45,222 nt of DNA from Pseudomonadota bacterium (GTDB taxonomy: Bacteria; Pseudomonadota; Alphaproteobacteria; Micavibrionales; UBA2020). Each line of letters begins with the position of its first letter. Position 1 is the first letter of the stretch. Location of the stretch: the NCBI GenBank assembly GCA_016195185.1, contig JACQAA010000186.1:1-45222 (forward strand), written 5' to 3'. Positions 15,567 through 27,416 of this stretch are shown one piece after another. The translations under genes and the position numbers were made by a program. Below the pieces are notes generated by a model. That model made no database searches and was not told the DNA's origin. It saw only the letters and a list, made by a program, of their open reading frames with translations.

Positions 15567-15595
15567 TTGACATATTGTCAACAGCTCAGTATTCT
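15567..15595 (+). promoter_or_regulatory. sigma70-type promoter for ankyrin pair A
   Basis: TTGACA-N17-TATTCT. The 14-bp palindrome AAGAAT-ct-ATTCTT (15555-15568) abuts and overlaps the -35. The track's TTG start at 15575 lies inside this promoter. Confidence 0.5.
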
Positions 15596-15640
15596 GAAAA
15601 AAATTATCGACGATTCGCGGGCGGGCCGCATAGAGACAAA

Positions 15641-16375
15641 ATGGCAATTTTTGTATCAGGTAAATCCATCGTTCTGAAAGCTATTAAGGAAGGCGATGTG
15701 AGCCTTCTCAGAGCCATTCTGAAAGAACAGCCGGAATGGCTGGAGAAGAAATTTCATGTCGGTTTTATCGGCATGTTCGATGGTTTTATTCTGGACATGG
15801 CAGCCTATTATAATCAGCCAAAAGTGATCGAGTTTCTGGTAACCGAAAAAAAGGTCGATATTAATCGTCAAAACGGGGTCAGTTGCCAATGGTCAGCGTT
15901 GCATCTGGCCTGCCGTAATGATTCATACGAGGCGGCAGAAATGCTGGTCAAGCTGGGCGCCAATGTGGGGGCAAAGGCCAGTCACGACACGACTCCTCTT
16001 GCTCTGTGCTCTTCCGGCCCCTGCAAAGAACGCTTGCGCGAATTATTCCGTCAGGCCCGTCAGGAAAAAGAAACGGCGCCCGAAAGGACTGATATCTGGC
16101 GGCGCATTTCTCCCGATGAAATCGTGCACGACCGCGACCTGCCGGAGAGCGGGTATCATATCACCGATATTTTCAATTTCGAGGCGCGCTACTGGACATC
16201 CATTACAAGAGACCTGAAAAGCGGCGTTCCGGCCCAGACTCAGCAATTTTTTGACGAGATGCCCGACACCCGCCTCCTGCATCTGGCCCATGAAAAATAT
16301 AAAGAACTGGGCGGCACGATCGGCGCTGACGTGATTGATAGCCAGCCCCTGCGCGGAAGAAATAAAACGCTCTGA
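15641..16375 (+). CDS. ankyrin-repeat protein with unassigned C-terminal domain (Ank-CTD A1, 244 aa)
   Basis: Ankyrin consensus pieces are present (..WSALHLACRNDSYEAAEMLVKLGANV.., ..TTPLALC..). The C-terminal 90 aa are paralogous to the next gene and, more distantly, to 26830-28100. Start set to ATG 15641, downstream of the predicted promoter, which gives exactly the length of the paralog. Confidence 0.8.
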   Translation: MAIFVSGKSIVLKAIKEGDVSLLRAILKEQPEWLEKKFHVGFIGMFDGFILDMAAYYNQPKVIEFLVTEKKVDINRQNGVSCQWSALHLACRNDSYEAAEMLVKLGANVGAKASHDTTPLALCSSGPCKERLRELFRQARQEKETAPERTDIWRRISPDEIVHDRDLPESGYHITDIFNFEARYWTSITRDLKSGVPAQTQQFFDEMPDTRLLHLAHEKYKELGGTIGADVIDSQPLRGRNKTL

Positions 16376-16404
16376 CTTGAAACCTATTCAGGAACATCAT
16401 CACC

Positions 16405-17139
16405 ATGCTGAACCCCAATAAATCCCGTTTTCTGAAAGCGATCAAAAAAGGCGACGTGACTTTTTTGAGAGAGTTTCTGGAGCAGCACCCGAAGTATCTC
16501 AAGAAGAAATTACATGCAAAACTATACTTGTTCGATGGTTTTGCCTTGAACATGGCAGCCTATTATAATCAGCCGAAAGTAATCGAGTTTCTGGTGACTG
16601 AGAAACATGTCGATATTAACAACCGGCGGCGGGTCCATCAGGAATGGACGGCGCTGCATCTGGCCTGCCACAACGATGCCTATGAAGCGGCGGAGGCCCT
16701 GGTGACGCTAGGCGCTGATATGGACTTGCCAAACTTCTTCGGCAAAACACCGCTGGGTATGTGCAGTTCAGACCCCATGCAAGAACGGCTGAAAGAATTA
16801 TTCGCCCGAACCAGGCTAGCCCGGGATAAGGCAGAACAGACCTGCACCAAGAGCGCTGATCAACAGGACATCTGGCGGCGCATCTCCCCGGGCGAAATCA
16901 TGCATGAGCGCGTGCTGCCAGAAAACGGCTATCGCATCACGGATATTTTCAATTTCGAAGCCCGCTACTGGACCTCCATCGTCAGAGACCCGACCAGCGG
17001 CACCCCGACACAGAATCGGGTATTTTTTGACAACATGCCCGATACGCGGATCTTGCACCAGGCTCATGCAAAATACGTTGAGCTGGGCGGCACAATCCCG
17101 GCAGAGGCGATCGACCGCCGCCCACGCAAAGCCCTCTGA
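16405..17139 (+). CDS. ankyrin-repeat protein with unassigned C-terminal domain (Ank-CTD A2, 244 aa)
   Basis: Tandem paralog of A1. It shares identical blocks MAAYYNQPKVIEFLVTEK, ALHLAC and ITDIFNFEARYWTSI. Confidence 0.85.
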   Translation: MLNPNKSRFLKAIKKGDVTFLREFLEQHPKYLKKKLHAKLYLFDGFALNMAAYYNQPKVIEFLVTEKHVDINNRRRVHQEWTALHLACHNDAYEAAEALVTLGADMDLPNFFGKTPLGMCSSDPMQERLKELFARTRLARDKAEQTCTKSADQQDIWRRISPGEIMHERVLPENGYRITDIFNFEARYWTSIVRDPTSGTPTQNRVFFDNMPDTRILHQAHAKYVELGGTIPAEAIDRRPRKAL

Positions 17140-22620: not shown

Positions 22621-23097
22621 ATGCCGGTACAGCAACAGGAATTCATGCGCCGGGCCATTGCCCTCTCCCGCCAGAAAATGGCGGCCAACTGCGGCGGCCC
22701 GTTTGGAGCGGTTATCGTCAGGCAAGACAAGGTCATTGCCGAGGGGTGGAATAGGGTGACCTCCAGCGCCGATCCGACCGCGCATGCGGAAGTGGTCGCG
22801 ATCCGGGCCGCCTGTAAAACTCTGGGGGACTACCGGCTGAACGGCTGCGACATTTACACCAGCTGTGAACCCTGCCCGATGTGTCTGGCGGCTATTTACT
22901 GGGCGCGGCTGGAGCACATCTACTATGCCAATACCCGGGCCGACGCGGCGGCGATTGGCTTCGATGATGCTTTCTTTTACCAGCAGATCAACCTGCCGGA
23001 AGAAAAACGCACCATTCCCACCAAGCGGATACTGCCCGACGAGGCCAGCGCCGTTTTCTCTGAGTGGTTAAAAAAAGCCGACCGGCAGCAGTATTAA
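22621..23097 (+). CDS. CMP/dCMP-type zinc deaminase (guanine deaminase-like / nucleoside deaminase)
   Basis: Zinc motifs HAEVVAIRAA and CEPCPMCLAAIYWA. The C-terminal extension is of the GuaD type rather than the short TadA type. Its ATG directly abuts the clpA stop. Confidence 0.75.
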   Translation: MPVQQQEFMRRAIALSRQKMAANCGGPFGAVIVRQDKVIAEGWNRVTSSADPTAHAEVVAIRAACKTLGDYRLNGCDIYTSCEPCPMCLAAIYWARLEHIYYANTRADAAAIGFDDAFFYQQINLPEEKRTIPTKRILPDEASAVFSEWLKKADRQQY

Positions 23098-23098
23098 A

Positions 23099-26000
23099 TC
23101 AGCGCCGGGGTTTCGGCCGGGAAGACGCGGCGGCTTTCCGCGCGCCGGCCCTGTGAATTTTGCGGTCTGGATATCGGAACTGCTCATAGGCACCGGGCAG
23201 CGATGCGGCGGTGGTAAAGGCGTCTTTGAGTTTCCGGGGCCCGCTCTCTTCCGCAGTGATCTGCCCCAGCGCCTGCTGCAGCAATACTGTCGGGCTTTCC
23301 TGACTGACAAAGGGGGCCACCCGCACCTCCAGCGCCGGCAATTGCGCCACGGTTGCGCCCACGGACCGGGTCCAGCCATCCACTTTAAGAACCGCCTCTC
23401 TGGCGGAGGCCAATCCCTCGTTCTCCACCCGGTTAAACAGCGCCTGGGCCTGATTGTCGTTCAGGGCCACCGGAAACGGTTGACTTTCCGTGATGATCTC
23501 GGTGCTGCCTTCGACCGGATCATGAGACAACAGCGTGATGTGGTCGGCGTGAACAACATCCAGCAATGTATTGCCCTCGCTCTCGGACAGTGCGCCGAAT
23601 TGCGGGTTGCCGGCCAGCTGATCCAGAACCCGGCGCTTTTCCCACGCTGGCGCATAAACCTCCTGAATCTCGGAACCAATAAGAAACTGCAGTTTCTCTT
23701 TTTTGGTATTGTAGTAGGCATCGTCAATGCTCTCTTCGTGCATCAGCAGGTTGCCGATATGAACCACGCCCGGTCTCTGCCCAATATCGGTCAGGACCTG
23801 TTTGGCCATCTCTGGTGATACCTGAATAAACCCCGGTTTGCGCGCGGAGCTGTATCTTTTGCAGTAAAATCCCACGGCCTTTTTGTCATCCAGCCCCTCG
23901 CCGTCCAGATCCCTATTGAGGGAGAGATAGCCCAGGACCTTCATATTGAAATAGAGGTCGGAATCATGCGTGGTGTGCATATCCGGCCTTTTGTCCAGCT
24001 TCTTCCTGAGGGCGGTTAAGGCACCCGGATCCTGCACAGGGACGGTATATAAAAATTCGTCCTGTCTCAGGAGTTTGTCAAAGTCAAAACTCTCAATCCT
24101 GAAGTCGAAACTGTTTTCCCCCTGATTCAAACGAATGATGGCGGCGTTGTCCGGGTTGAATTTCGTCGTCGCGTCGATATCCAGCAGGCGCGCATCCTTT
24201 TTGAGGGTGACCTCTCCGGTCAGGACTGTCTGCACCCCGTACTTGTCGATCATCAAAGTGGAGCCATCCTCCAGCGCTTGCAACAAACAGATGGAGGACA
24301 GATTATAGCTGCTGACCGCCCCGGTATCGGGGTCCGTCACATGCATGAAATCGGTGCGTTTTTTCAGCGCCGCCACGGTTGCCGCATCGGTATGCAAATC
24401 CGCCTTGACATGGTACCAGAAGATGGCGGAGGTCTCTATGCCAGACCTGGGGTCCGTGCCATGACAGATGGCGTCTATGTTCTCGGGCCGGAAGAGGCCG
24501 TGATTCTCCCGCAGAAAGCCGCCGCGCCTCTCGATGAGGGACAAGAGCTCTTCCGCATCCTGTGCCGATATGTTATCGAGCAGCACGTGCGATTTTCCCT
24601 GCCCTTGCGCCACCGCATAATTCACGGTTCTGCTATCGGCGTTGTACCATATGTTCGCAATGCGATTGAGGTGGCAAAGGACTTTATCATCCGTCAGGCG
24701 GATATTCTCGCCAACAAGAAGTTGCTCAAGATGGGAGAGGGTGGCGGAGGCCTTGCCCGGCGCCAGGTTGTGCGCGGCCTGGGCCAGAATATTGGCTTTG
24801 ATCACACCGGAGTCAAAGGGCTCCAGCAGCGCTGCCACCCATTCTGTTTTCTTCTCATCGCTAATTTTACTCGATACCACTTTTTCCAGCCACCCCCCGG
24901 GCGCCTGAGACAGTTGAGCACGCAATCCCTCCAGTCCTCCCGCCGAGAAGCTGTGAGCAATCAAACGACGTACGGTATTGACAGGGAATGTGTCCAGAGC
25001 AGACAAGACCTCATTCTGCATCAGGGTTTCAAATTTATAGGCAGGGCCCTTCCGGTCGCCATAGCCGTAGGGATAATTGCCATCAATTCTAATTTCATCC
25101 AGTAATCCCGCATTCAGGCTTTGCTCTAACAACGATGCCTTGGCCAGCGGGCTGGCCGAAACCGAGAGAACGTCGGTCAACAGGGACGCGTCCGGATGAC
25201 ACAGATACCAGAGGGAAATCGCCTCAAACGCCGACTTTTCAGTTTCAATTTTTTTAAGAGCAGAGAGAAGTTTTCCAGCATCCTTGCGTTGGAGGGCATC
25301 ATTAAACTGAACGTAGCTGCCGGAAATCTCCGGGCGCTGGCCGTCCATCCCCGACAGAAGCGCGGACAACGCCGCTTCCTGGGCGGGAAGATCGTTTTGG
25401 AACCGCTCGATCACGCGCTGAAAGACGTTGTGGCGATGGATGGTGTCAAGGAAGTCTTCCGGCTTGGTGTCATAGCGGGATTTCAGGTCCGCCATGACCC
25501 GCGGCAAGAAGCCGGGCGCCAGCGGGTTTTCTTTGGCCAGCACCAGTCCCAGGAATTTTTCAAAAATCTCCGGCGCCGTTTTGGCATCGGCAAAAACCAG
25601 CTTCTCGTCCGTCGGCACCGCGATCGGGCTCTCCAGCAGCTCCACCTTGGCGCAAGGGTGCTTGATGTGCTTCAAAATCAGCTCGTCCCAGGACAGCGCC
25701 TGATAGTCCCCCAGAAGCACCTTTTTCAGCAGTTCACTGGCCGCCGTCGCTGTCGCGGGAAACACATTCTTTAACTCCGCCAGGATGACGGAGGCTTCCT
25801 GACCATCAATCGCCGCAGCGACCCGCGAATATTGCAGGGCCATCTCCCGCACCGCCTGGGCATGACCCTCGACCGCTTCCTGATAGTCGGCATGGGCGAT
25901 ATCGATGATCGTCGCCGGATTTTGGTACGCCAACATCCTGGCGCTCGCATCTGCCGCCTTGCCGTTCGCATCGAAGGTGGCAGGCTCCAGCGTATCAGCG

Positions 26001-26662
26001 ACCCAATTCATAAAACTGTCGATATAGTAATGGCGGGCGCTTTGCAGCCCCAGCAGTTCATCTTTTACAGCGCGCAGTTGCTGGTAGACATCAGGGACCG
26101 GTTCTTCCCGGGGCTTTTGCTCTTCTGGCTGTTTTTCTTCTTTATCCTTGCCGCCAAACCAATTACGGAACAGCCCTTTTTTCTGTTCTTTCGGTTCCTC
26201 CTCTGACTGATCCTGACTCTCGACGGGCGGCGGGGGGGCGGCGGGCGGAGCGCTTTCTACATGAACGGTGGGGATCACCACGGTCGGCAAGGGCTCTTGC
26301 AGTGTGGCGGGCATCATATCAGTGAGGGGGGCAATCGCCTTCTGGAAGGCATTGTCCCTGCCAAAGGCGGTTTCAGATTTCGCTTTGAAGTCCTGCAAAC
26401 CCAGCACGAATCCCGCCACATCCCCCATCTGCGACAGCAGGGCGAGAGCGGTTGCTTCATCCTGGTTGTTCAGGGAGCGTTCCAGCTTCTGGTGAAACAG
26501 GATGATGTTATTTTTGTTGGCCGTCAGCCAGTTATTCACCGAATCCGTGTTTCTCTCCACGACCGTCAGGTAATCACCCAGCTGATCGCGCAGCTTGGCA
26601 AGAGCCTCGATATCCTGGGGTAATCCAAGGTTTTTCGGCGGGGATGCTCCGGCTGAATCCAT
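23099..26662 (-). CDS. giant orphan protein (1187 aa), no recognisable domain
   Basis: Uninterrupted 3.56-kb ORF with ATG start, an AAGGA SD and its own promoter-like element. It has a coiled-coil-like N-terminus and a Pro/Glu/Lys low-complexity linker (about aa 135-190). The large remainder shows no motif I can name. The basic tail is ..RKIHRAGARKAAASSRPKPRR. Confidence 0.8.
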   Translation of the reverse strand: MDSAGASPPKNLGLPQDIEALAKLRDQLGDYLTVVERNTDSVNNWLTANKNNIILFHQKLERSLNNQDEATALALLSQMGDVAGFVLGLQDFKAKSETAFGRDNAFQKAIAPLTDMMPATLQEPLPTVVIPTVHVESAPPAAPPPPVESQDQSEEEPKEQKKGLFRNWFGGKDKEEKQPEEQKPREEPVPDVYQQLRAVKDELLGLQSARHYYIDSFMNWVADTLEPATFDANGKAADASARMLAYQNPATIIDIAHADYQEAVEGHAQAVREMALQYSRVAAAIDGQEASVILAELKNVFPATATAASELLKKVLLGDYQALSWDELILKHIKHPCAKVELLESPIAVPTDEKLVFADAKTAPEIFEKFLGLVLAKENPLAPGFLPRVMADLKSRYDTKPEDFLDTIHRHNVFQRVIERFQNDLPAQEAALSALLSGMDGQRPEISGSYVQFNDALQRKDAGKLLSALKKIETEKSAFEAISLWYLCHPDASLLTDVLSVSASPLAKASLLEQSLNAGLLDEIRIDGNYPYGYGDRKGPAYKFETLMQNEVLSALDTFPVNTVRRLIAHSFSAGGLEGLRAQLSQAPGGWLEKVVSSKISDEKKTEWVAALLEPFDSGVIKANILAQAAHNLAPGKASATLSHLEQLLVGENIRLTDDKVLCHLNRIANIWYNADSRTVNYAVAQGQGKSHVLLDNISAQDAEELLSLIERRGGFLRENHGLFRPENIDAICHGTDPRSGIETSAIFWYHVKADLHTDAATVAALKKRTDFMHVTDPDTGAVSSYNLSSICLLQALEDGSTLMIDKYGVQTVLTGEVTLKKDARLLDIDATTKFNPDNAAIIRLNQGENSFDFRIESFDFDKLLRQDEFLYTVPVQDPGALTALRKKLDKRPDMHTTHDSDLYFNMKVLGYLSLNRDLDGEGLDDKKAVGFYCKRYSSARKPGFIQVSPEMAKQVLTDIGQRPGVVHIGNLLMHEESIDDAYYNTKKEKLQFLIGSEIQEVYAPAWEKRRVLDQLAGNPQFGALSESEGNTLLDVVHADHITLLSHDPVEGSTEIITESQPFPVALNDNQAQALFNRVENEGLASAREAVLKVDGWTRSVGATVAQLPALEVRVAPFVSQESPTVLLQQALGQITAEESGPRKLKDAFTTAASLPGAYEQFRYPDRKIHRAGARKAAASSRPKPRR

Positions 26663-26700
26663 CGATTTGTGAATCCTTACAGGGGGTTATGACTGTTGAA

Positions 26701-26729
26701 TTTATAGCATAGGTCTTCTGTTTATGCAA
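26701..26729 (-). promoter_or_regulatory. sigma70-type promoter for the giant orphan gene
   Basis: On the minus strand this reads TTGCAT-N17-TATAAA, about 35-40 nt upstream of ATG 26662. Confidence 0.45.
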
Positions 26730-26765
26730 ATCATTTTCGTAAAATAATGCGGCCCATCTTAGTCA

Positions 26766-26794
26766 TTGACATAAATGGATATTTTGCCTAATGT
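26766..26794 (+). promoter_or_regulatory. sigma70-type promoter for ankyrin pair B
   Basis: TTGACA-N17-TAATGT. The track's ATG 26791 lies inside the -10 hexamer, so ATG 26830 is the more plausible start. It stands back-to-back with the 26701-26729 promoter, 36 bp apart. Confidence 0.5.
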
Positions 26795-26829
26795 CTCTAT
26801 CGAGAATCAGGAAAGGCAGGATCGGGACG

Positions 26830-27393
26830 ATGGCAGATGAGGCACAGACAGAGCTCAATAAGCGACTGGTAGATGCCTGCAAAACTGGAGTGGCCGCAGA
26901 AGTCATCACTTTGCTGGACAAGGGGGCGGACATCAACTACAGCAAAAGCGAGAGCGAGAAAAATCTTCCGCTGGTCTATGCCGCCTATTGCGGGCATCTG
27001 GAAGTCGTCAATATTTTATTGGTACGGGGTGCAGATAGGCAGGGTCAGTGTAACAAAAAAACAGCCGCGCAGTGGGCGCAAGACACGGGGCACACGGCTG
27101 TGGCAGTTCGGCTCAGCGAAGACCCAGATCAGGTGATCTTTCAACAACCACTTAGTGACCGTACGCTGGAAGAGGTTTTTAATTTCGCCACGCTGGAGCG
27201 CATTTCCCTGGTCCGCCATTCTCCGCAAGGCGCCGTCGAAGCGATCACCCGCGAACCCTTCTCGGAGATTGTGGACCAGTCGCAACTCCGCAAGGCTTTT
27301 GAGGAGCATGTCCGCCGTGGCGGCAAAGCTGACGAAAGCCGCGTCTTCCCCTATGTTCTGTCCAAATCAAAATCGCCACGGTCTGGCCTATAA
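26830..27393 (+). CDS. ankyrin-repeat protein with unassigned C-terminal domain (Ank-CTD B1, 187 aa)
   Basis: Ankyrin pieces (LLDKGADINY..., LVYAAYCGHLEVVNILLVRGAD). The C-terminus VFNFATLERISLVRHSPQGAVEAITREPFSEIVDQSQLRKAFEEHVRRGGKADESRVFPYVLSK is paralogous to B2. Confidence 0.8.
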   Translation: MADEAQTELNKRLVDACKTGVAAEVITLLDKGADINYSKSESEKNLPLVYAAYCGHLEVVNILLVRGADRQGQCNKKTAAQWAQDTGHTAVAVRLSEDPDQVIFQQPLSDRTLEEVFNFATLERISLVRHSPQGAVEAITREPFSEIVDQSQLRKAFEEHVRRGGKADESRVFPYVLSKSKSPRSGL

Positions 27394-27416
27394 ACTTTCT
27401 CGAAGGATAGCACGCC

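Follow-up and report, generated by a model that had tools for sequence, protein, structure and literature searches.

A previously undescribed core protein of Micavibrio-related Alphaproteobacteria with predicted LytTR-like modules and a MinD-like motif: a possible membrane-associated scaffold

BIG, the 1187-aa product of a minus-strand gene in the analyzed stretch of 45,222 nucleotides (hereafter the window), represents a protein family, about 1150 aa in length, that was previously undescribed and unannotated. Its gene, inherited vertically at a single locus, belongs to the core genes of an uncultured Micavibrio-related alphaproteobacterial lineage. We tentatively propose, at a probability of roughly 0.45, that BIG acts as a membrane-associated cytoplasmic scaffold or adaptor and not as a toxin. 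An earlier note, made from the window sequence, had interpreted the gene as an inserted orphan that encodes a candidate effector; this interpretation is partly supported overall. The open reading frame is present as described there, and the gene and the predicted parts of its product are located as follows.

23099..26662, minus strand: BIG coding sequence, 1187 aa (ORF list, full-length homologs, dN/dS, Met1)
23101-23099, minus strand: stop codon (ORF list)
26333..26617, minus strand: N-terminal helical bundle, aa 16-110 (AlphaFold2, conservation)
25958..26332, minus strand: disordered Pro/Glu/Lys-rich linker, aa 111-235 (pLDDT, composition)
26150..26179, minus strand: MinD-MTS-like KGLFRNWFGG, aa 162-171, candidate amphipathic membrane-targeting helix (regex)
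26009-26035, minus strand: invariant RHYYIDSFM helix inside the linker, aa 210-218 (alignment)
24713..25957, minus strand: all-alpha domain, aa 236-650, about 22 helices (AlphaFold2 pLDDT mostly 80-95)
23387..24712, minus strand: seven LytTR-like beta modules of about 60 aa, each helix-ended, aa 651-1092 (AlphaFold2, Foldseek, repeat HMM, hhalign)
23102..23386, minus strand: C-terminal helices, aa 1093-1140, and disordered basic tail, aa 1141-1187 (AlphaFold2 model)

BIG is a genuine protein-coding gene under strong purifying selection. Met1 is nearly invariant (alignment A1), dN/dS ranges from 0.07 to 0.15 between close orthologs, and GC and GC3 match those of the neighboring genes. A first search revealed 16 full-length homologs with 32-53% identity, and an exhaustive search of 1.84 billion representative proteins extended the family to 88 members. 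Genomic loci with full-length homologs are known from 28 or more species-level MAGs that carry the labels Micavibrio, Bdellovibrionales, Rhodospirillaceae or Alphaproteobacteria, so that the term orphan does not apply.

The order of the locus is nearly constant, rimO - [0-7 Ank genes] - mscL <-> BIG - entericidin - ECF sigma, and the position of BIG next to rimO/epmB and mscL is constant across the clade. Even P0049, whose profile match covers the N-terminal two thirds only, retains this order. BIG evolves much faster than its neighbors, with 32-35% identity where RimO is at 83-86%. In the window, BIG is separated by a 1-nt gap from the convergent deaminase gene (22621..23097), as the earlier note had reported. 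The insertion of an accessory gene against a clpSA-deaminase unit, which was read from this arrangement, is rejected in view of the constant locus, the native GC and GC3, and the low dN/dS. Native composition, purifying selection and the clade-wide promoter and palindrome described below argue for vertical inheritance under constraint; the rearranged part of the window is the clpSA-deaminase side, not BIG.

The region upstream of BIG comprises the following elements and neighbors.

26701..26729, minus strand: sigma-70-type BIG promoter (sequence; conserved upstream of orthologs, invariant columns in alignment A4)
26729-26724, minus strand: -35 box TTGCAT (sequence)
26709-26707, minus strand: extended -10 TG (TGC) inside the 17-nt spacer (sequence)
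26706-26701, minus strand: -10 box TATAAA (sequence)
26733..26745, minus strand: inverted repeat ATTTTAC-GAAAAT, candidate operator (near-invariant to invariant block in A4)
26674..26678, minus strand: Shine-Dalgarno AAGGA, 11 nt 5' of the BIG ATG (sequence; conserved A4 columns)
26766..26794, plus strand: divergent promoter-like element TTGACA-N17-TAATGT of the first Ank-CTD gene, with boxes at 26766-26771 and 26789-26794 (sequence)
26791/26831-27393 and 27417-28100, plus strand: two Ank-CTD paralogs, neighbors only (Pfam Ank matches)

The earlier assignment of a separate promoter, TTGCAT-N17-TATAAA, is borne out clade-wide in the form TTGCAT-N17-(TGn)TATAGT. In 24 orthologous loci, the predicted elements lie 61-78 nt 5' of the start codon, and they constitute invariant columns of A4; at the sequence level, this same-position conservation in more than 24 loci altogether validates the promoter, with a predicted transcription start near 26694. 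A generic promoter scanner applied to the window called neither this promoter nor the divergent one of the Ank gene. The palindrome ATTTTCCGAAAAT adjoining the promoter is conserved across the clade, with the consensus ATTTTCC-GAAAAT, and is a candidate operator-like site. It abuts the -35 box of BIG between the two divergent -35 boxes, is the sole site with at most one mismatch in the 45-kb window, and occurs together with the -35 box as an exact pattern in 10 loci.

TTGACA-N17-TAATGT was likewise confirmed on the plus strand, with the two -35 boxes 36 bp apart. The annotated ATG at 26791 falls within its TAATGT box, which makes the ATG at 26831 the more likely start of the first Ank gene. 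Only the window and loci L005 and L006 have an equivalent element, TTGACA-N17/18-TA...T, at this position. Thus, the back-to-back arrangement of BIG and Ank promoters emphasized earlier holds for the three closest genomes, whereas the usual divergent partner of BIG is mscL and not an Ank gene.

The AlphaFold2 model of the full-length protein (pLDDT 79.4, pTM 0.65; C-terminal part pLDDT 87) predicts a helical bundle, a disordered linker, an all-alpha domain, seven beta modules and a basic tail in this order. It matches the four-part architecture of the earlier note: helices at 16-110, linker at 132-235, a folded part at 236-1110, and the tail. The bundle (helices 16-48, 50-65, 69-87 and 90-100; pLDDT 68-89) is the most conserved region, with a mean majority fraction of 0.66. 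Its invariant residues are E36-R37-N38-T39, W45 and G80-x-x-A83-G84-F85, of which W45 is invariant even in distant relatives; D40 is nearly invariant. The linker is acidic, proline-rich and disordered (pLDDT below 50 at aa 132-235), and includes the RHYYIDSFM helix with H211-Y212-Y213-I214-D215 and M218 invariant. For the all-alpha domain, Foldseek returned no confident neighbor, but only low-probability matches to alpha-solenoid, TPR and annexin structures. The tail carries the motif [ED]-x-[FIL]-x-Y-P-x-x-[KR][KR] (visible in A1) and is the sole consistently basic region of the family, with a net charge that varies among members from +2 to +10 and is +10 in the window protein, compared to -39 for the whole protein. 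Its strongly basic character had been recognized before, although Lys and Arg account for 10 of the last 25 residues instead of 9.

Regex checks confirmed the absence of P-loop, HExxH, CxxxCxxC (radical-SAM), RTX and YD motifs, and hydropathy in 19-residue windows (maximum Kyte-Doolittle 1.46) that of a signal peptide or TM segment. Without a hydrophobic segment or RTX motif, BIG is predicted to reside in the cytoplasm. The earlier statement that no motif could be named was fair for a reading without tools, but misses two features, the MinD-MTS-like motif and the LytTR-like modules.

The modules are predicted to adopt the LytTR fold, the only confident structural match of BIG. Their boundaries are aa 651-714 (M1), 715-769 (M2), 770-830 (M3), 831-892 (M4), 893-962 (M5), 963-1019 (M6) and 1020-1092 (M7), and a sub-model of aa 640-1110 (pLDDT 87, pTM 0.85) suggests a rigid array. 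Foldseek related the modules to the LytTR domains of AgrA, ComE and 3d6w with probabilities of 0.97-1.00, a TM-target of 0.55-0.67 for LytTR-only chains (0.32-0.34 for full-length ComE), and an rmsd of 3.3-4.1 A for the best chains. All matches with a probability of at least 0.95, in two PDB searches and a viral library, were LytTR domains. At the sequence level, a 58-aa repeat HMM detects modules across the family and matches the window protein at 651-713, 964-1019 and 1034-1082. Against the generic repeat, hhalign assigned probabilities of 99.5 (M1), 91.9 (M5), 99.3 (M6) and 97.4 (M7) and weaker values to M2 (70), M4 (44) and M3 (1.6), the last of which reveals no sequence relation to the other modules. 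Two distant relatives, P0091 (33.6 bits) and P0093 (24.3 bits), pass the curated cutoff of Pfam LytTR (22.6 bits). The window protein itself has no Pfam LytTR match, profile searches against PDB sequences did not reach LytTR, and hhalign against AgrA was not significant. Hence, the LytTR link of BIG rests on predicted structure and on the LytTR-matching relatives.

KGLFRNWFGG is a probable membrane-anchoring motif, judged from its ten-residue resemblance to the membrane-targeting sequence of E. coli MinD, KGFLKRLFGG (PMC5471200). F169 is invariant, and the family-wide motif G-[FLW]-[WF]-x-[KR]-[ILMV]-[ST]-G-K-[DE] is kept in very distant members as the only conserved island of the otherwise unconserved disordered linker. 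A hydrophobic-moment test did not distinguish it from shuffled linkers.

In the mechanism we propose, KGLFRNWFGG would attach BIG reversibly to the inner membrane from the cytoplasmic side, the LytTR-like array would offer a rigid platform for multivalent binding, and the basic tail would add a second contact, electrostatic in nature, with nucleic acid or acidic phospholipid. Classical DNA recognition by the array has probably been lost, since the average net charges of the modules range from -3.6 to +0.2 and, in a low-confidence alignment, their consensus has Asp at the base-contacting Asn201 position of AgrA.

The same two observations weigh against an unlikely, though the strongest, alternative: a nucleoid-associated protein or Noc-like membrane-DNA tether, in which array and tail bind DNA and the motif binds the membrane. 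This reading draws on LytTR as the sole confident fold match, a known DNA binder in AgrA and ComE, on the two Pfam-matching relatives, on the consistently basic tail, and on a membrane-targeting-like motif without a secretion signal. However, the protein as a whole is strongly acidic, the window protein lacks the Pfam match, no receiver or other regulatory domain is present, and seven tandem copies would be without precedent for a sequence-specific LytTR regulator.

An export of BIG and Ank-CTD proteins as effectors, via similar C-termini and a non-Sec route, to act in prey or a eukaryotic host is quite improbable. It builds on the Ank-CTD paralog family, which is present in 0-7 copies between rimO and BIG and recalls an arsenal: members lie within 8 kb upstream of BIG in 22 of 28 informative loci, and divergent Ank/BIG promoters occur in the closest relatives. 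The linkage noted earlier stands to this extent, but six genomes have BIG without a nearby Ank gene, copies are variable in number and rarely adjacent to BIG, and homology of the Ank C-terminal domain to BIG was looked for and not found. The C-terminal pattern proposed to be shared is an aromatic-Pro motif ahead of a basic disordered tail (E-x-x-V-F-P-x-x-L-x-K-x-K-x-P in Ank-CTD proteins, compared to the BIG tail motif); a conserved basic C-terminal tail also resembles some secretion signals, and the much faster evolution of BIG relative to RimO would fit. Against this, BIG is a syntenic, single-copy core gene of native composition under strong purifying selection, no toxin, enzyme or secretion signature was found, and a conserved internal membrane-targeting-like motif suits a resident cytoplasmic protein. 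The cultured relative M. aeruginosavorus possesses T1SS and T2SS but neither T3SS nor T4SS (PMC3189940). The toxin-like role suggested earlier is therefore disfavored.

Least probable is an enzyme with an unrecognized catalytic domain, its active site formed by bundle, RHYYID helix and alpha domain and its substrate positioned by the array: E36, R37, N38, T39, H211, D215, D259, D286 and Q288 are invariant and D40 nearly so (17 sequences, 32-53% identity), and conservation is highest in the N-terminal part, which the most distant relatives keep, yet no enzyme family was matched by sequence or structure, and the model has low confidence around the RHYYID helix, where the chain is probably disordered, which is more in keeping with a binding motif than with an active site.

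Compared to known systems, the Ank-CTD neighbors resemble Ank-repeat effector families of host-associated bacteria in forming a variable paralog array, and match Legionella Ank/Leg models (NCBIfam) weakly through their ankyrin repeats, far below curated cutoffs. BIG, in contrast, has neither ankyrin repeats nor similarity to any effector family. Its modules superpose, as predicted folds, on the LytTR domains of AgrA, ComE and LytR/AlgR-type regulators (PF04397; 3bs1, 4g4k, 4xqj, 4cbv, 3d6w), and their signature F-x-R-[IL]-x-D-x-L-[IV]-N-x-N aligns with the hallmark F-x-R-x-H-R-S-x-[IV]-V-N. The regulators carry a single LytTR domain of about 100 aa with DNA-friendly charge, whereas in the 1187-aa BIG, seven tandem, degenerate, neutral to acidic modules follow the bundle, linker and alpha domain, and the receiver or sensor domain of LytTR response regulators is missing. 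With MinD, BIG shares the Lys-flanked pattern K-G-hydrophobic-hydrophobic-basic-x-hydrophobic-F-G-G; the motif is internal in BIG but C-terminal in MinD, and BIG has no ParA/MinD ATPase domain.

Noc binds DNA as a ParB-like protein and has an amphipathic membrane helix; PopZ and HubP are acidic hubs whose linkers are disordered. Homology of BIG to these three was not detected in sequence or structure, and the three lack LytTR-like modules. The analogy with them is one of working principle: a cytoplasmic protein that would combine a membrane- or pole-targeting element, a long, acidic and disordered linker and a multivalent binding region.

The BIG gene occupies 23099..26662 on the minus strand and encodes 1187 aa, as the ORF list confirms, with a spacing of 1 nt to the convergent deaminase gene. 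Regular expressions for P-loop, HExxH, CxxxCxxC, RTX and YD motifs are all unmatched in the protein, and every 19-residue window is too weakly hydrophobic for a signal peptide or a transmembrane segment. On these points the earlier note was correct. The basic tail it described is also present, but Lys and Arg account for 10 instead of 9 of the last 25 residues. Its description of BIG as an orphan has to be given up: a search of 5.8 billion clustered proteins yielded 16 full-length homologs (1075-1182 aa, 32-53% identity), a scan of one genome per GTDB species yielded 28 loci, and an exhaustive HMM search of 1.84 billion representative proteins yielded 88 family members and no more. Some members of approximately 1100-1250 aa match the N-terminal ~700 profile positions alone. 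The full-length alignment contains invariant positions at E36-R37-N38-T39 (D40 nearly so), H211-Y212-Y213-I214-D215, M218, E614-P615, F835-N836-P837-x-x-A840 and F854-R855-x-E857. Because there are 16 full-length homologs and invariant positions, yet only 88 members in the exhaustive search, the family is real but narrow. None of the 16 homologs carries a Pfam domain or an informative name, direct sequence searches with BIG had no significant match in Pfam, NCBIfam, PDB, PADLOC or PHROGs, and a further word-indexed search for homologs, run with a broader alignment, revealed neither additional homologs nor a named or cultured member.

The 28 loci all belong to metagenome-assembled genomes (MAGs) labelled Micavibrio sp., Bdellovibrionales, Rhodospirillaceae, Rhodospirillales or Alphaproteobacteria. 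In the NCBI taxonomy, Micavibrio is still placed under Bdellovibrionales, and we infer that these labels denote a single Micavibrio-related alphaproteobacterial lineage. The lineage is related to epibiotic predators. The family is a universal marker of this poorly known, uncultured lineage related to predatory Micavibrio, and its function therefore likely bears on the cell biology of the lineage. An ortholog in M. aeruginosavorus was sought by synteny in a published RNA-seq table, where mscL (GMV_1099) has no adjoining gene of BIG size (~3.4 kb), so that neither an ortholog nor an expression value was recovered. Our search of literature and databases found no description of the family or of tandem LytTR arrays.

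The neighbourhoods of six homologs and a tblastn synteny survey of all loci reveal a usual gene order of epmB - rimO - (0 to 7 Ank-CTD genes) - (sometimes other genes) - mscL <-> BIG - entericidin - anti-sigma/ECF sigma - hydrolase - hut genes, where Ank-CTD denotes ankyrin-repeat genes with a shared C-terminal domain. This order is present almost everywhere, nearly all relatives having BIG at the same place beside rimO/epmB and mscL, and even P0049, a protein matching the N-terminal part of the profile only, has the same downstream neighbours. In the window, the rimO/epmB side is kept, clpS-clpA-deaminase replaces entericidin and ECF sigma on the other side, and mscL is missing; here the flank was rearranged and the BIG gene was not inserted. 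GC content (0.564) and GC3 (0.680) are inside the range of the neighbouring housekeeping genes, and dN/dS is 0.07-0.15 between close ortholog pairs at 88-93% amino acid identity (Nei-Gojobori). The constant locus, the native composition and the low dN/dS contradict the proposal of an inserted accessory gene: BIG is a core gene of vertical descent. Over long evolutionary distances it diverges fast, with 32-35% identity compared with 83-86% for RimO and 72-90% for MscL.

Divergent promoters had been proposed for BIG and the adjacent Ank-CTD gene. Their hexamers are present, with 36 bp between the two -35 boxes, and a palindrome falls exactly between these boxes:

26729-26724 and 26706-26701, minus strand: TTGCAT-N17-TATAAA, BIG promoter
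26766-26771 and 26789-26794, plus strand: TTGACA-N17-TAATGT, Ank-side promoter
26733-26745: inverted repeat ATTTTCCGAAAAT, abutting the BIG -35 box in the alignment of upstream regions; ATTTTAC-GAAAAT in the window, ATTTTCC-GAAAAT in the clade

From the window sequence alone both promoters are merely plausible, because a generic promoter scanner called neither of them. Comparison with relatives changes the picture for BIG. TTGCAT-N17-TATAGT is located 61-78 nt upstream of the start codon in 24 orthologous loci (the window TTGCAT is at -67), and a TG placed two bases ahead of the -10 box is conserved as well, giving an extended -10. In an alignment of 14 upstream regions, the invariant or near-invariant columns include those of the -35 box, TGnTATA, an AAGGA Shine-Dalgarno sequence and the block immediately upstream of the -35 box. 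Judged by this conservation, the BIG promoter is real. The palindrome, further examples of which are found at L012 7883-7903 and L022 7870-7890, looks like an operator. The 45-kb window contains no second close copy of it and hence offers no evidence for a regulon; CtrA (TTAA-N7-TTAA), EcfG (GGAAC-N16-CGTT) and sigma-54 patterns are absent upstream of BIG. The Ank-side TTGACA promoter is common only to the window and two orthologous loci, L005 and L006. Its -10-like TAATGT (window 26789-26833 region) shares bases with ATG 26791, the start codon of the longest ORF. A more probable start of the first Ank gene is the in-frame ATG 26831 (MADEAQ...), with AGGA-rich sequence ahead of it.

For the full-length protein, AlphaFold2 with a 17-sequence alignment gave a model of mean pLDDT 79.4 and pTM 0.65, with the following predicted parts:

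aa 16-110: helical bundle
aa 132-235: disorder
aa 236-650: all-alpha domain, pLDDT mostly 80-95
aa 651-1092: seven beta-rich modules (M1 to M7), each with a helix at its end
aa 1093-1140: two helices
aa 1141-1187: disordered basic tail

When aa 640-1110 were modelled on their own, pLDDT was 87 and pTM 0.85, and the modules are therefore predicted to pack as a single rigid body. Alpha-solenoid, TPR and annexin matches of the all-alpha domain were rejected at Foldseek probabilities below 0.5. The net charge of the whole protein is -39 and only its tail is basic (+10 in the window protein, +2 to +10 across the family), the family means of the modules being neutral to acidic (-3.6 to +0.2).

In distant relatives the modules are obvious as tandem repeats of ~58 aa with the signature F-x-R-[IL]-x-D-x-L-[IV]-N-x-N-x-[IV]-x-x-[IV]-x-Y-D...L-x-F...G...helix. 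An iterative repeat HMM found 167 copies in 69 family proteins, and in BIG it matches aa 651-713 (1e-19), 964-1019 (8e-16) and 1034-1082 (1e-4). Pairwise hhalign against the generic repeat supports M1, M5, M6 and M7 at 92-99.5% probability; M2 (70%) and M4 (44%) are borderline cases, and M3 goes undetected. When the full model was compared with the PDB by Foldseek, a probability of at least 0.95 was reached for LytTR domains only (AgrA 4xqj, 4xqn, 4g4k; ComE 4cbv; 3d6w). LytTR-only chains gave a TM-target of 0.52-0.63 and an rmsd of 3.4-4.5 A, an exception being 4g4k_B with 7.5 A. The model of aa 640-1110 retrieved these same LytTR domains with improved E-values, the lowest being 2.4e-3, and a TM-target of up to 0.67. 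Over the BIG models, the LytTR probabilities are 0.97-1.00, and no other fold exceeds 0.5; small LytTR-like proteins of a viral structure library are matched as well. The predicted modules show the elongated beta fold of solved LytTR domains. Matches of the aa 640-1110 model to beta-propellers (Apaf-1, LRP6, clathrin terminal domain) combined probabilities below 0.3 with an rmsd of about 20 A and a TM of about 0.1, and were discarded as repeat-induced noise. According to these models, the modules appear LytTR-like in fold, and their origin is probably LytTR likewise.

LytTR is the DNA-binding output domain of transcription factors, usually fused to a receiver or membrane sensor. A reading of BIG as a DNA-binding protein or membrane-DNA tether would draw on this fold, and two distant relatives, P0091 (33.6 bits) and P0093 (24.3 bits), are the only ones to pass the gathering score of Pfam LytTR (PF04397, 22.6). 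In BIG itself this model has no match even at E up to 1, and Pfam and NCBIfam reveal no receiver or sensor domain. Profile searches with the full-length, module-region and double-module alignments did not reach LytTR among PDB sequences; a borderline Npl4 ubiquitin-like-domain match of the double modules (E 0.006) was treated as chance. Module profiles were also aligned by hhalign to the AgrA sequence, confirmed against 3bs1. The result is not significant (E 0.054, 39 columns), and its register places the module F-i-R-I-x-D-x-l-i-l-N on F-F-R-C-H-N-S-F-V-V-N of AgrA. AgrA contacts bases through H169, N201 and R233 (PMC11039898). The comparison covers the N201 region only, H169 and R233 being unmappable onto the modules, and in this non-significant register the conserved Asp of the module takes the position of Asn201, while the equivalents of R198 and N206 are kept. 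Since the fold matches stand against the missing Pfam match of the window protein, the non-significant profiles, the Asp at N201 and the neutral-to-acidic charge, we call the modules LytTR-like and do not file BIG as a member of the LytTR DNA-binding family. We consider DNA binding or a membrane-DNA tether rather unlikely.

Three short relatives of 472-525 aa, P0088, P0092 and P0096 (locus L039 7001-8419), consist nearly entirely of LytTR-like modules. They are surrounded by hypothetical genes in a Rhodospirillales MAG, and P0088 and P0096 have a hydrophobic C-terminal end that is possibly tail-anchoring. The gene contexts of the short module-only P0096 and P0084, and that of P0091, gave no functional clue.

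The disordered linker contains a sole conserved island, KKGLFRNWFGGKD in the window, with KGLFRNWFGG at aa 162-171. It reads KKWWSSASSWFKK or KKGFWKKLFGG in relatives and G-[FLW]-[WF]-x-[KR]-[ILMV]-[ST]-G-K-[DE] in distant members, and F169 is invariant in the family alignment. The membrane-targeting sequence (MTS) of E. coli MinD is KGFLKRLFGG (PMC5471200). KGLFRNWFGG matches the MinD-type pattern K-G-hydrophobic-hydrophobic-basic-x-hydrophobic-F-G-G, is flanked by Lys and is conserved family-wide; it is closely alike to the MinD MTS in sequence and differs in being internal. Its hydrophobic moment is no higher than that of shuffled linkers, a comparison that is uninformative because charged linkers score high when shuffled and thus inflate the null. 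As the motif is internal and not separable from shuffled linkers by its hydrophobic moment, membrane binding is something we infer from its sequence.

Taken together, BIG is a constrained core gene with its own promoter, encoding a cytoplasmic multidomain protein with tandem modules that are LytTR-like in their predicted fold. The family is well defined, and for its function we propose a membrane-tethered scaffold or adaptor, with a probability of roughly 0.45. The MinD-like motif in the flexible linker would anchor BIG at the inner membrane, the LytTR-like array, rigid and acidic, would serve as a multivalent binding platform, and the basic tail may provide an additional electrostatic contact.

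According to the earlier note, BIG was a candidate large effector or toxin-like protein, possibly linked in function to the ankyrin genes. A related reading is that of a secreted effector exported together with the Ank-CTD proteins. Linkage as such is confirmed: at least one Ank-CTD gene (copy number 1 to 7) lies within 8 kb upstream of BIG in 22 of the 28 informative loci, and none within this distance in the other six (L003, L018, L020, L021, L023, L032). However, the arrays begin beside rimO and mscL normally lies between them and BIG, so that the direct back-to-back arrangement is restricted to the subclade of the window, L005 and L006. The Ank C-terminal domain has an hhalign probability below 1% against both the BIG alignment and the repeat profile, and phmmer with the Ank N-termini found no BIG-family protein. 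The tails of BIG (window 23102-23242) and of the Ank-CTD proteins (27300-27393 / 28010-28100) show in succession one acidic residue, one hydrophobic residue, the pair aromatic-Pro and a disordered stretch rich in Lys, Arg and Pro, a short resemblance which could represent a signal or binding motif common to the C-termini of both. Of the marks of a T4SS effector, a positively charged disordered C-terminal tail together with a cognate T4SS, BIG has the tail. Secretion-system genes are absent from the window, and cultured M. aeruginosavorus possesses T1SS and T2SS and lacks T3SS and T4SS (PMC3189940). BIG carries no secreted-toxin signature in the form of a hydrophobic N-terminus, GGxGxD or a match in Pfam, NCBIfam, PADLOC or PHROGs. 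The effector interpretation was not upheld; we regard joint export as unlikely. Adjacency to ankyrin genes and a lack of matches by eye do not make a gene a horizontally acquired effector. An enzyme relying on the invariant polar residues of the N-terminal half is the least likely reading.

The Ank-CTD genes themselves are tandem paralogs in 0-7 copies between rimO and mscL/BIG (e.g., window 26791-28100, L001 3960-8498, L029 1216-4641, L034 1219-4605). In all of their products the C-terminal domain ends in ...LRxAFxEHxxRGGKxxExxVFPxxLxKxKxP, and there is no Pfam match outside the ankyrin repeats. Compared with the other BIG-family members, P0062, a distant one, has an insertion in its alpha region, namely a single consensus ankyrin repeat (MTPLQIAAQKGHIEIVRALLAE, aa 436-466), which again points to a ready spread of ankyrin repeats in the lineage. 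As a 'Rosetta stone' fusion of BIG and Ank it was rejected, being one inserted repeat in this protein only. A second ankyrin pair (pair A, 266 and 244 aa; window 15575-17139, plus strand) is flanked by genes for an MFS transporter and a DEAD-box helicase and shows no tblastn match to the Ank-CTD proteins at E 1e-5 or below.

Some further genes of the window deserve mention. At 31392-32996 (minus strand), a class II aminoacyl-tRNA-synthetase-like domain (PF00152, aa 20-329) and C-terminal ankyrin repeats (aa ~437-473) are joined in a protein of 534 aa; given the adjacent epmB it is EpmA/PoxA-like, an unusual EpmA-Ank fusion adjoining epmB and rimO. Between epmB and this gene, 30574-30870 (minus strand) encodes 98 aa with a central hydrophobic helix and very basic Pro/Lys-rich ends, and no Pfam match. 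Positions 33000-44526 are devoted to purine catabolism (xdhA, xdhB, xdhC, PuuD-type urate oxidase, OHCU decarboxylase, allantoicase, ureidoglycolate lyase and a polysaccharide-deacetylase-type enzyme, possibly PuuE) and also encode malate synthase. Together with the hut genes of relatives, this cluster argues against a strongly reduced, obligately host-dependent metabolism.

An apparent orphan has thus become a defined, undescribed family whose boundaries are clear and which has conserved motifs, a confident structural model, a conserved promoter and a likewise conserved putative operator. Two far-reaching extensions are conceivable, and we rate them as quite unlikely: BIG might found a new class of cytoplasmic organisers, in which the LytTR fold is multiplied to a rigid seven-module array with a MinD-like anchor and could keep DNA or a large complex attached to the envelope, or BIG and the variable Ank-CTD proteins might have in common a new C-terminal export signal, made up of aromatic-Pro and a basic tail, that would serve an unrecognised secretion route. 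To our knowledge, the LytTR fold is known only as a single-copy DNA-binding output domain, and its predicted occurrence in tandem and in a non-regulator context is unprecedented. If confirmed, the array would give a LytTR match a wider meaning in annotation and would be, as far as we know, the first case of this fold as a tandem structural repeat outside transcription factors.
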